A DNA stretch of 2,483 nucleotides from Pedosphaera sp. (lineage in GTDB: Bacteria > Verrucomicrobiota > Verrucomicrobiia > Limisphaerales > SIBH01). A program made the position numbers. Below, one piece after another: positions 1 to 2,483 of this stretch (within the stretch, counting starts at the first letter, position 1; each line of letters starts with the position of its first letter). The stretch is from the NCBI GenBank assembly GCA_031414955.1, contig JANOQV010000221.1, positions 1 to 2,483 on the forward strand. The letters are read 5' to 3'.

Positions 1-2483
1 CCGCTGCGGCGCGAGGCCGAAGATCGAGCCGAGCCGGCGGTGCAGGTCGTCCATTTCTTTGAACGGATCCCAACGAGTCAATGCATTCATGTCTTTTTGC
101 CTTTCCGCGGCGGTGCAGTTCATTCGCCACCCGACGCGCCACCGCCATTCAGCACATCGGGCGTTTTGTTTTCTTCCGGCCCGCATGTCGCGAACCGCGT
201 GCCGTTACACTGGTTCATACAACAGGATAAGTGCCAGAGACGGAATCGCGGTAATGCCTGCAAACACTGGTTATTTACGAGATTAGCACGGCAGCGGGTG
301 TGACAGGCGTTTCAAAGTGGCACACCGCCGTGGCACAACGTCACAGGCATGACACAGTGTTGGGGAGACTGGCTGCCGGGGGTGGAATTGCACCACCACG
401 AGCGCCTTCAAAGGGCGCGGGACTGCTGTTATCCAACCCGGCAAAAACAGGTGGAGCCGGAGGTAGTTGCAACCTCACCAAGTCGGATTAAAAGTCCGAT
501 GCCGGTCTGCTGTGGCTTCGACTCCATGTGCTCTGCGTGATCTGAAATTCGAGATTTCAAGTTTCAAATCCAAAAGCTGGTGCTCGCGGCGGGACTCGCA
601 CCCGCACTGGCGGCGCTCTCGACGTCGTGCCTCTGCGTTGGGCTACGCGAGCGAAAGAGACATCCCCGGCCGGTCTCTTCCACCGGCTCCGCTTCCTTGC
701 GGAAGCCGCTCGAGCTGTTTCGCGTTCGGGGATGTGAAATGGTCGGCGTGCTGGGTAACGCTCCCAGGTCCGGCACTGGTCCAGTGCGATGCGGGGTATA
801 AAGCCGCCGGTTCTCTTTGAACTACACGCCGGAAATGGATTTGGAAGAGTGGCGGAACGCCGTGGACTTGCGCCACACGCCCGAGGGCGCGCGCTGTTTA
901 GCAAACAGGCCCGGCCCGCTGGTCCGGTTGACGTTCCGAAATGAGATCGACGCCGGACGAATGCGCGTCAGCGTGGAAGCAAAAGATGATTGTTGAACGA
1001 TCCCCCGGGATCGTCGCCGGAGTTGAGAAGAATGTCCCTGGCCTGGCGGGCAGTGACCTGATGGGCGCTCGCGTCGCCGACGGAGACGTTGCCGACATTG
1101 CGGTGCGGCTTCGGCCCCCACTTAAGGTTCGGGATGTTGTTGGCGGCGAATTCCATGGTGAGATTGGTGACGCCCGCGACGGGACATCGCTGGTTCCTGC
1201 GACCGCCGTCGATGTTCCAGTCACCCACGAGCATCATGCCCACCTTTTCCTCCTTGGTATCCGCCCCGAGGAAATACGAGATGTTGGTGTCGCGCAGGCT
1301 GGTCCAGTCAGTGGCGATCTGCCGCGTATCGCTCGGGCAAGCGAGGATCTTCACCGTCTCGAGATCATTTCTCATGGCCAGAAAGCTCCAAAAGACGTTG
1401 CTGCGTGCGAACGATCCGCCGTCTGTGGTCGTGATGCGCCAAGGATATTTTTCCATGTCCGTCACGAAGAGGTGCATCGAGATGGAGATTTGCTTGAGAT
1501 TGTTCAGGCAGGAAATGCGTCGGGCTTTCTCCTTGGCCTGAGCCAGCGCCGGCAGCAGCAGCCCGGCGAGGATGGCGATGATGGCGATGACGACGAGCAA
1601 CTCGATGAGCGTGAACGCTCGTGAGCGGGAAGGCCGAGGCTTCATAATTCGCCGGGTGGTGCTCTGGTTTGATCTGGACTGTAGTGTCGCCGGGGGCGGT
1701 GTCAACGCCACCAGCAGGGCCATTTTTCAGGCGACATAGTGTTCCGGGAAGTGGTGCCGCGTGAAGGATTCGCACCCTCAACCTTCCCGTTCTGAGCGGG
1801 ACGCCTCTGCTGTTGGGCTAACGCGGCATGGCGAGATGAGAGGTGAGAAGTGCGAGGTGCGAGCCGCCGTTCCCTCGCACTTCCCCACTCTTACCTCAAA
1901 CTGGCGCTCCCGGCAGGACTCTCACCCGCATCTCCGACGTTCGAAGCGTCGCGCTCTGGTAATTGAGCTACGGAAGCTAAAACGGCAGGTGGGAGAGCGG
2001 GGAAGTGGGCTGGTGAGCAAGCCACGTCGGCCTTGGCTCACTTCCTCACCTTACCACCTGCCCACACTGGTGCATCGCCAGGGACTCGCACCCTGACCGC
2101 GCGGCTTAAGAGGCCGCCGCTCTGCTGCTCGAGCTCGCGATGCGAAATGGAGCCGGCGGAGAGACTCGCACTCTCGCGGGGCGTGACGCCCGGCAGTTTA
2201 CGAAACTGCTGCTGTCGCTACTGAGCCACGCCGGCATTGGAAAGATGGTCGCAGTCCCCGGTGCCGCCCCGGGAGGGCCTTGCGTGTCGAGCAGGGCTGA
2301 ACGCTGGTCCGACTGCGCTGGAGCCTCCCCCGGGACGTGCGCCCGTCTCTCGCCTTTACCAACGGCGCGCGTCGCTTTCTACGCTTGGGAGGTTGGAGGT
2401 TTTGGTGCGGCAACCGGGAGTCGCACCCGGACGAGCTGCTTGGAAGGCAGCCATGCTGGCTGTTGAACATCACTGCCGCAAAG

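Follow-up and report, generated by a model that had tools for sequence, protein, structure and literature searches.

The tRNA genes of the window (the whole of contig JANOQV010000221.1, 2,483 nt) are, as judged from their sequences, a portion of an accessory tRNA set of the L-array type, and their elbow is swapped rather than broken: A18 partners G55 and the 19-56 pair is retained. G55 is present in 12 of 12 genes, and U55 together with G18 in none. Position 18 is A in 11 of the 12, the exception being the C18 of Leu-GAG, and 19-56 is a Watson-Crick pair in 11, the exception being the C19/A56 of Arg. In the literature G18 and pseudouridine 55 count as universal features of tRNA (PMC4810234, PMC7912444, in the parts consulted). 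The genome-wide survey's note on this DNA had the most conserved tertiary pair of tRNA broken, with D-loops lacking G18G19 and a T-loop that always reads T-G-C-R-A. G18 is indeed absent but G19 is retained, and G55 is constant but positions 54 and 58 are U and A in only 8 of the 12 (A/U, C/A, G/G and C/C occur in one gene each). The tertiary pair is replaced, by a covarying A18-G55.

Genes were sought with a cloverleaf parser that is blind to T-loop and D-loop sequence and requires stems, U33 and a CCA end, at a score of 18.5. Over the 6.5-Mb genome it returned 53 candidates, one of which, a low-scoring false match, was dropped; eight lie on the window contig, with G55, and 44 elsewhere. All 44 of the latter carry U54-U55-C56 and G18G19, and the survey's count of TTC in 44 of 44 ordinary tRNAs is the same with this sequence-blind parser. 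Neither the parser nor homology searches found further array pieces on other contigs of the genome. ARAGORN run genome-wide at a reduced threshold gave 465 calls, largely noise, and was set aside. In the window, ARAGORN again calls the seven tRNA genes of the survey at the same coordinates, each on the minus strand with an encoded CCA; the two extra copies proposed at 449-525 and 2319-2393 are real, and three more genes lie at 740-831 (UAU), 850-937 (Ser-GCU) and 2246-2317 (Met/Val-like). These 12 tRNA-like genes span 2.1 kb to the contig end on a single strand (Table 1). Identity to ordinary counterparts, put earlier at 45-59 positions, comes to 40-56 of 74-88 (same anticodon, eight comparisons).

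Seven of the 12 genes exceed the Rfam gathering cut-off (32.2-54.3 bits) and five have no Rfam report. Three of the survey's seven tRNAs had been placed under that cut-off; all seven in fact exceed 29 bits (32.2-54.3), and the three seemed to fall short because the fast filters of Rfam's gathering mode drop them, so that four are shown. The A18-G55 alternative accounts for the loss of such genes in standard filters (three of seven in Rfam fast mode, with five of 12 missed altogether). Rfam matches in the window to miRNA, Plastid-ycf2 and tmRNA are all under their own cut-offs.

Table 1. Genes and elements of the window, in order of position
Feature	Position	Strand	Sequence and structure	Detection and score
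Downstream reading frame, start only	1..186	-	truncated at contig end	
tRNA-Gln(UUG)	370..443	-	A18/G55; final gene of array	Rfam 45.3 bits
tRNA-Lys(UUU)	449..525	-	G55, D-loop AG	parser, homologue alignment
Short-arm tRNA-Leu(GAG)	578..652	-	C18/G55	ARAGORN; Rfam 37.4 bits
Conserved tRNA-shaped RNA	660..735	-	no CCA; variable hairpin replaces anticodon arm	
UAU-anticodon tRNA, 92 nt	740..831	-	A54-G55-C56, U58	folding, parser
tRNA-Ser(GCU), long arm	850..937	-	C54-G55-C56	folding, 11 aligned homologues
Inserted prepilin-type N-methyl / DUF1559 gene	968..1723	-	probable start ~1645	
Sigma-70-like promoter match	1678..1705	-	upstream of inserted gene	weak: 1 found against 0.4 expected
Short-arm tRNA-Leu(CAG)	1752..1827	-	A18/G55	Rfam 54.3 bits
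Long-hairpin spacer	1828..1901	-	-37.0 kcal/mol	folding without shuffle control
tRNA-Arg(UCG)	1902..1977	-	A18/G55, C19 facing A56, without A20	Rfam 53.3 bits
Long-hairpin spacer	1978..2067	-	-42.5 kcal/mol	folding without shuffle control
tRNA-Lys(CUU)	2068..2143	-	A18/G55, G8 with G14	ARAGORN, parser; Rfam 45.4 bits
tRNA-Thr(CGU), long variable arm	2148..2235	-	A18/G55	ARAGORN, parser; Rfam 47.2 bits
Met/Val-like tRNA-like gene, 72 nt	2246..2317	-	G54-G55-C56, G58	folding, homologues
tRNA-Thr(GGU)	2319..2393	-	C54-G55-C56, A18G19; mismatch at first pair	parser, folding
tRNA-Gly(UCC)	2403..2479	-	G55, D-loop AG	ARAGORN, parser; Rfam 32.2 bits

Beyond the 12 genes, folding and homologue alignments delineate a tRNA-shaped RNA without CCA, two hairpin spacers and an inserted DUF1559 gene. 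The tRNA-shaped RNA is a good match to no Rfam family; a sequence similar to the 1978..2067 spacer lies outside arrays in genome G037; and the prepilin-type N-methyl/DUF1559 family is common, with many copies in the host, and not specific to the array. The reading frame at 1..186 has no Pfam or NCBIfam match; it may resemble the N-terminus of a small heat-shock protein. About four of the 12 tRNA copies carry lesions that their homologues lack, namely C33 twice, a CCU end, an unpaired first pair and C19/A56. C33 and a mismatch in the anticodon stem suggest that tRNA-Leu(GAG) is decaying, its L016 orthologue being intact. The 3' end of tRNA-Lys(UUU) is CCU, against CCA in six homologues (82-95% identity), and the Met/Val-like gene has anticodon GAC with C33 against CAU in seven homologues from other genomes. 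Neither ARAGORN nor Rfam detects tRNA-Ser(GCU). The T-loop type of tRNA-Thr(GGU) recurs in the Thr-GGU of G234.

That position 18 answers to position 55 is best seen in tRNAs gathered from relatives, GTDB contigs and viral contigs (1,169 distinct sequences). In a strict set of 207 with 7-nt D-loops, where positions 18 and 19 are fixed independently of the T-loop and matches to the seed motif are excluded, G18/U55 occurs 137 times, A18/G55 56 times, C18/G55 six times and G18/C55 three times; G18/G55 and U18/G55 occur twice each, A18/C55 once and A18/U55 never. The counts are of related sequences, which overstates their independence, and the GTDB and viral-contig loci were seeded on one G55 motif; the tables give coupling, not natural frequency. 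Throughout the strict set the 19-56 pair is Watson-Crick in 205 of 207. Among close pairs of tRNAs (76-95% similar) that differ at position 55, 15 of 15 differ at 18 too, with 12 distinct U55 partners, and the closest such pair is a phage tRNA-Val (L234, L165).

Loci of the same order tell a similar story. G55 is found in 173 of their 180 tRNAs, and the five cases of U55 are all array Leu-CAG with GG restored, orthologues from other arrays of the Leu-CAG in the window. D-loops containing A followed by the complement of base 56 number 146 of 173, where shuffling gives a mean of 82 and a maximum of 97. Positions 19 and 56 covary as well (U-A, or C-G as in many Arg tRNAs); alternative pairs also occur at 54-58 and 8-14 in array tRNAs, U54/A58 being kept in 184 of 285. 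In G234, a single-contig genome, 27 of 27 parsed array tRNAs, covering 18 parsed amino acids, are G55, as are 18 of 18 in G057.

A18 very probably inserts into the T-loop to make its contact with G55. The precedent is the L2/L5 T-loop of the FMN riboswitch, UGAAA, in which G is likewise second and an incoming A sits between positions 4 and 5 (PMC3764141, the part available); 8 of the 12 window genes have the corresponding U-G-N-R-A sequence. Unlike the riboswitch, the array loop lies within a tRNA and is followed by the 19-56 pair, and its geometry is here deduced from sequence. Much of canonical bacterial elongator tRNA (RF00005; PMC4810234, as far as consulted) persists: the cloverleaf, the 7/5 branch, CCA, R57, G53-C61 and the 19-56 pair. 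It is G18 with pseudouridine 55 that gives way to A18 with G55, and 54-58 and 8-14 vary too. The ribosome, RNase P and T-boxes are reported to recognise the outer face formed by G19-C56 (PMC4810234), and by keeping 19-56, R57 and G53-C61 the array tRNAs would preserve the flat outer face for the ribosome, RNase P and synthetases. We found no published description of A18-G55 in natural tRNAs, in a literature search that left most subscription papers outside. The Steinberg group reportedly carried out in-vivo selections of D/T-loop variants in 2003-2004, which may include A18-G55.

It could be argued that A18-G55 is simply equivalent to the ordinary pair and became fixed by chance, unselected, in the selfish or decaying cargo of a mobile lineage. 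Arrays do span nearly none to all G55, Leu-CAG exists in both elbow states among orthologous arrays, the window copy of the array is decaying, and the G234 array adjoins Tn7-like transposition genes. Each switch requires two changes, however, and the A18/U55 intermediate is seen in 0 of 207 sequences. Conversion of 173 of 180 tRNAs, for 17 amino acids and with identities kept, is hard to reach by drift, and array orthologues remain 88-95% identical across families. We regard neutral drift as improbable.

Are these tRNAs used? They look usable by sequence, and it is likely that the A18/G55 array tRNAs serve in translation. Of 269 array tRNAs, 219 share their discriminator base with the host's housekeeping tRNA for that amino acid (shuffled mean 110, maximum 134), and array tRNA-Ala keeps G3-U70 in 8 of 8, as the survey had it. 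On these two grounds its picture of a second tRNA set, near-complete, seemingly chargeable and redesigned at the elbow, is borne out. The trn operon of Anabaena offers indirect support, its sole Ile-GAU gene having A18-G19 and G54-G55-C56-A57-G58. An aminoacylated band is reported in vivo for this tRNA, which migrated aberrantly and for which misacylation was not excluded (PMC8421152, the portion available). In the same operon, which includes three pseudogenes, charging was recorded for 23 of 26 tRNAs, and those assayed for it were found with polysomes (PMC8421152). Glu-CUC is its second A18/G55 tRNA and may be one of the pseudogenes. The 41 tRNAs parsed from the Saccharibacteria genome G041 include a single tRNA-Cys, and it is A18/G55 with A54/U58; the sample comprised 42 of 43 Rfam hits, one 87-nt hit being omitted, and one sub-threshold hit was unparsed. 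Pattern searches, with the present genome as positive control, found an A18/G55 tRNA-Cys and no ordinary one in four further Saccharibacteria genomes, whose assemblies are incomplete. Two pattern matches, in G042 and G044, were read as tRNA-Ala(UGC) and rejected.

Alternatively, the array RNAs might be decoys or repair substrates, made under stress, that bind or are cut by toxins or engage Ro60 or RtcB, and that rarely decode. Some Anabaena operon tRNAs are reportedly cleaved, and a sponge role was raised by those authors; six allo-tRNA(UAU) variants failed to translate in E. coli (PMC5389517, as far as available). Ro60 and RtcB are neighbours of the relatives' arrays, and the array has odd members: the long-arm UAU tRNA, the compact Met-like gene, the CCA-less RNA and Arg without A20. 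A20 is the main ArgRS identity element; it is absent from most array tRNA-Arg, and a single ArgRS was found in the genome. Against decoys, discriminators, G3-U70 and anticodon loops agree with the amino acid, coverage of the amino acids is near-complete, the sole tRNA-Cys of G041 has the A18/G55 elbow, and the charged and polysome-bound Anabaena tRNAs speak for decoding. A decoy would also be expected to keep its cut site, not to drop it. We give this possibility little credence.

Translation with the array tRNAs would fall to the host's ordinary machinery. The survey had allowed for a dedicated non-standard partner, but in an assembly 95.9% complete we found a single TruB, a single ArgRS, a single EF-Tu domain-3 match and no second Ile, Leu, Val or Met synthetase.

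In its setting the array resembles the type case of L-arrays, the trn operon of Anabaena sp. PCC 7120 (PMC8421152, PMC10272220, in part), a context that the survey had not recognised. With that operon it shares a one-strand cluster of supernumerary tRNAs, patchy spread and short-arm tRNA-Leu; the HNH and RtcB neighbours of the type case recur beside the relatives' arrays. L-arrays are normally kept silent until translational stress induces them, and the contig stops short of the promoter end of this one. Verrucomicrobia are among the L-array phyla named (PMC8421152). Ten of the 12 window anticodons are duplicated by a parsed housekeeping tRNA, GAC is as well, and UAU has no twin. Arrays in relatives hold 18-27 parsed tRNAs and adjoin genes for RtcB, Ro60/TROVE, HNH, Band 7, RlaP, KptA and an exonuclease, a setting reported for L-arrays (PMC8421152). 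In this genome, with its short window, RtcB and HNH homologues lie on contigs other than that of the array, and a homology search gave no match to Ro60.

At the elbow, unlike the window, the Anabaena operon is ordinary (U54-U55-C56) in 20 of 22 parsed tRNAs, and the available portions of its published accounts (PMC8421152, PMC10272220) carry no remark on T-loop or D-loop sequence. Many arrays make do without the swap in this way, U54-U55-C56 being found also in 18 of 18 tRNAs of phage Bhz51 and 21 of 23 of phage Phosso. Cultured phages matched by blastn were rejected as models, since the stretches read from them have ordinary elbows. By the sequence features tested the array is an L-array, and what sets it apart is an A18-G55 elbow throughout the set.

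Similar arrays were found in the same genus, as claimed, though in G003, G006 and G011; the genomes numbered G004 and G005 here gave no match, and the survey's numbering may differ. The survey's frequency of 31 in 150 Limisphaerales genomes was roughly reproduced, with parsed G55 tRNAs at fetched loci in 9 of 40 relatives, an estimate limited by incomplete genomes. At least three clustered matches to the G55 motif occur in 7 of 300 genomes of the phylum; isolated matches (63 of 301 genomes) were not counted, being no more frequent than with a reversed-pattern control. The trait is not confined to Limisphaerales, as had been supposed, and extends to other Verrucomicrobiota, phages, Patescibacteria and one cyanobacterial operon.

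What might favour the conversion of a whole set? The survey had suggested that the set evades some factor recognising the elbow. A named candidate for that factor now exists, although the escape itself is only inferred. Cash, a CRISPR-associated Schlafen tRNA nuclease (PMC13462974, the part available, as for all that follows on it), is not a relative of the array; it is the kind of enzyme that a G55 set would resist. It cleaved 28 E. coli tRNAs, chiefly within the T-loop and on the 5' side of U55 of a UUC motif. Replacing either U54 or U55 alone was enough to prevent cleavage, although the substituted bases need not include G. Some anticodon loops are also targets, and the authors do not decide whether the enzyme acts on phage tRNAs. 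The T-loop UUC motif occurs in 0 of 505 G55 tRNAs, UUC is retained in the anticodon loop of 59 of 285 array tRNAs, and 58 of 577 viral U55 tRNAs lack U54 instead. Within this genome no Cash-like gene was demonstrated: two AlbA_2 proteins seem to be of a generic kind, and control genomes gave matches too (5 of 14). Under stress, some Anabaena operon tRNAs, and not the housekeeping ones, are reported as cleaved. On balance, nuclease escape may be the selective cause of the set's conversion, with the case for and against it about equal in our judgment.

Another reading is that the set is designed to fold and work without modification by TruB, TrmH, Dus, ThiI or TrmA; a burst of stress-induced or phage tRNA could then go into use immediately, and any escape would be a side effect. 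Several modification targets are depleted in concert. D-loop uridines average 0.94 per array tRNA, with none in 108 of 285, against 2.2 in the host, where 0 of 44 have none; of the 285, 227 keep U8 and 188 keep U54, while all 44 host tRNAs have both. G18 and U55 are the targets of TrmH and TruB, respectively (PMC7912444). Yet the loss of uridines fits escape from U-directed nucleases too, and the host does possess TruB. As TruB is non-essential in many bacteria, an unmodified U55 is tolerated. Modification independence as the driving force seems unlikely to us.

We propose a model, which we hold to be somewhat more probable than its negation, where the array is a back-up pool with an alternative elbow, converted to survive T-loop nucleases. 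The contig would carry the 3' end of a long L-array-type operon of accessory tRNAs. A18 would slip into the T-loop and contact G55, as the adenosine does in FMN riboswitch UGAAA T-loops, with 19-56, R57 and G53-C61 staying in place, and the host's ordinary enzymes would process and charge the products. These tRNAs would be drawn upon while translation is under attack. Nucleases that act on many tRNAs, Cash among them, would cut at U54-U55-C56, the one site common to all ordinary tRNAs, and the whole set would be converted for that reason; the G55 set would survive, and the neighbouring RtcB, Ro60, RlaP and KptA genes would repair cut RNAs. Of the parts of this model, the array, the covariation, the neighbours and the identity elements are observations, and one charging case and the dependence of Cash on U54 and U55 come from papers. 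It is tempting to go further, if tentatively and with somewhat less than even confidence: a working A18-G55 elbow may exist across bacteria and phages, adopted set-wide by arrays and phages as a counter-defence against T-loop immune nucleases, with a spare decoding system beside RNA-repair genes restarting translation.

A matched natural alternative, carried throughout tRNA sets, reveals where the true constraint on the elbow lies. Two questions become testable with reagents that already exist: what purpose full tRNA sets serve in L-arrays and phages, and whether phage or array tRNAs escape broad T-loop nucleases. Nuclease-resistant, modification-poor tRNA scaffolds may also find use in engineered translation.

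Other natural tRNAs without G18G19 and TpsiC are known, in tRNA-Pyl and type II mitochondrial tRNAs (PMC7609411, in part), and the core of the 2246-2317 gene is similarly compact, its D-arm following immediately upon the acceptor stem and its anticodon stem being 7 bp. Those tRNAs have given up G19-C56 too, and each is either a single species or organellar (PMC7609411), whereas the array has a matched, set-wide replacement. The 2246-2317 gene is not a tRNA-Pyl, its anticodon being CAU or GAC rather than CUA and AG and C56 being retained. The UAU tRNA, with its 5-nt D-loop and long variable arm, recalls the UAU allo-tRNAs, long-arm tRNAs found amid clusters of irregular tRNAs (PMC5389517, in part). 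Allo-tRNAs have 8/4 or 9/3 branches, whereas the window tRNA and its homologues have 7/5, and the assignment was rejected.

Two features that the survey had counted as part of the redesign belong elsewhere. The Anabaena operon has four short-arm tRNA-Leu with ordinary elbows, and long-arm tRNA-Leu with A18/G55 occur in G234, G057 and G144; the short-arm form is neither new nor coupled to G55. The long-arm tRNA-Thr, taken as typical of the array, is found in only 2 of 19 cases, and long-arm homologues of the window's tRNA-Thr(CGU) are present in L016, L073, L345 and L352.

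The arrays also contain a conserved tRNA-shaped RNA that lacks a 3' CCA and has no match in Rfam. It consists of a closing stem of 8-10 bp, a D-arm-like hairpin, a variable hairpin and an invariant T-arm-like hairpin. Across 11 sequences, two-sided changes occur in six of the eight closing-stem pairs, against 0 of 500 shuffles. The constancy of the third helix is due to the selection of sequences, because this helix served as the search motif. The motif is present in 22 of 201 genomes of the order, and is exact in 15 of those 22. This RNA is a candidate tRNA mimic, or a candidate partner of Ro60.

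Two further members of the array are unusual in shape. The long-arm tRNA, whose UAU anticodon is found in no other tRNA of the host genome, has a conserved variable-arm loop and occurs in both elbow states across arrays and phages. The compact tRNA of 72 nt has no bases separating the acceptor and D stems, a 4-nt D-loop, a 7-bp anticodon stem and a 3-nt variable loop; its anticodon is CAU in the homologues and GAC in the window copy, where the stem carries compensatory changes.

Features and their coordinates
Feature	Location	Strand	Also found in
tRNA-shaped RNA, conserved within arrays	window 660-735	-	L335-L338, L340, L345-L349, L352, L356, L073
Long-arm tRNA (UAU)	window 740-831	-	L017, L020, L323; phage loci L161, L165, L180, L220
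Compact tRNA	window 2246-2317	-	L003, L009, L010, L017, L335, L349, L355
Ordinary tRNA-Gly(UCC), two copies	host (G000) C276:516-589 and C12:75436-75509		
A18/G55 tRNAs Ile-GAU, Glu-CUC	Anabaena trn operon (L030) 9835-9908 and 12007-12084		
Short tmRNA-like element	L030 about 11740-11822	-	

Among the 30 array tRNA-Arg sequences, most UCG, UCU and CCU species are missing A20 and have the 19-56 pair altered to U-A or C-G. In Saccharibacteria the housekeeping tRNA-Cys combines A18/G55 with A54/U58 (loci L040, L051, L052, L061, L066, L083, L093, L109), and in some of them Gly-GCC and Ala-GGC show the pairs U19-A56 and A19-U56. The Anabaena trn operon, the subject of earlier experiments, has two A18/G55 tRNAs, together with a short element that seems to resemble the tRNA-like domain of tmRNA without its coding part.

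Neither Ile-GAU nor Ala-UGC was found among the ordinary tRNAs of the host assembly, and tRNA-Gly(UCC) is present in two ordinary copies; both observations agree with rRNA operons having escaped assembly and with the 5.8% contamination of this assembly.

In the single-contig genome G234, the array is adjoined by genes for the salvage of NAD (isochorismatase family, NAD synthase and NAPRTase) and by Tn7-like transposition genes (L323 3143-8350, L330 14784-19924). Another genome, G017, carries two separate full arrays, on contigs C24 and C39 (L017, L026), with 23 and 18 parsed tRNAs and RtcB in each.
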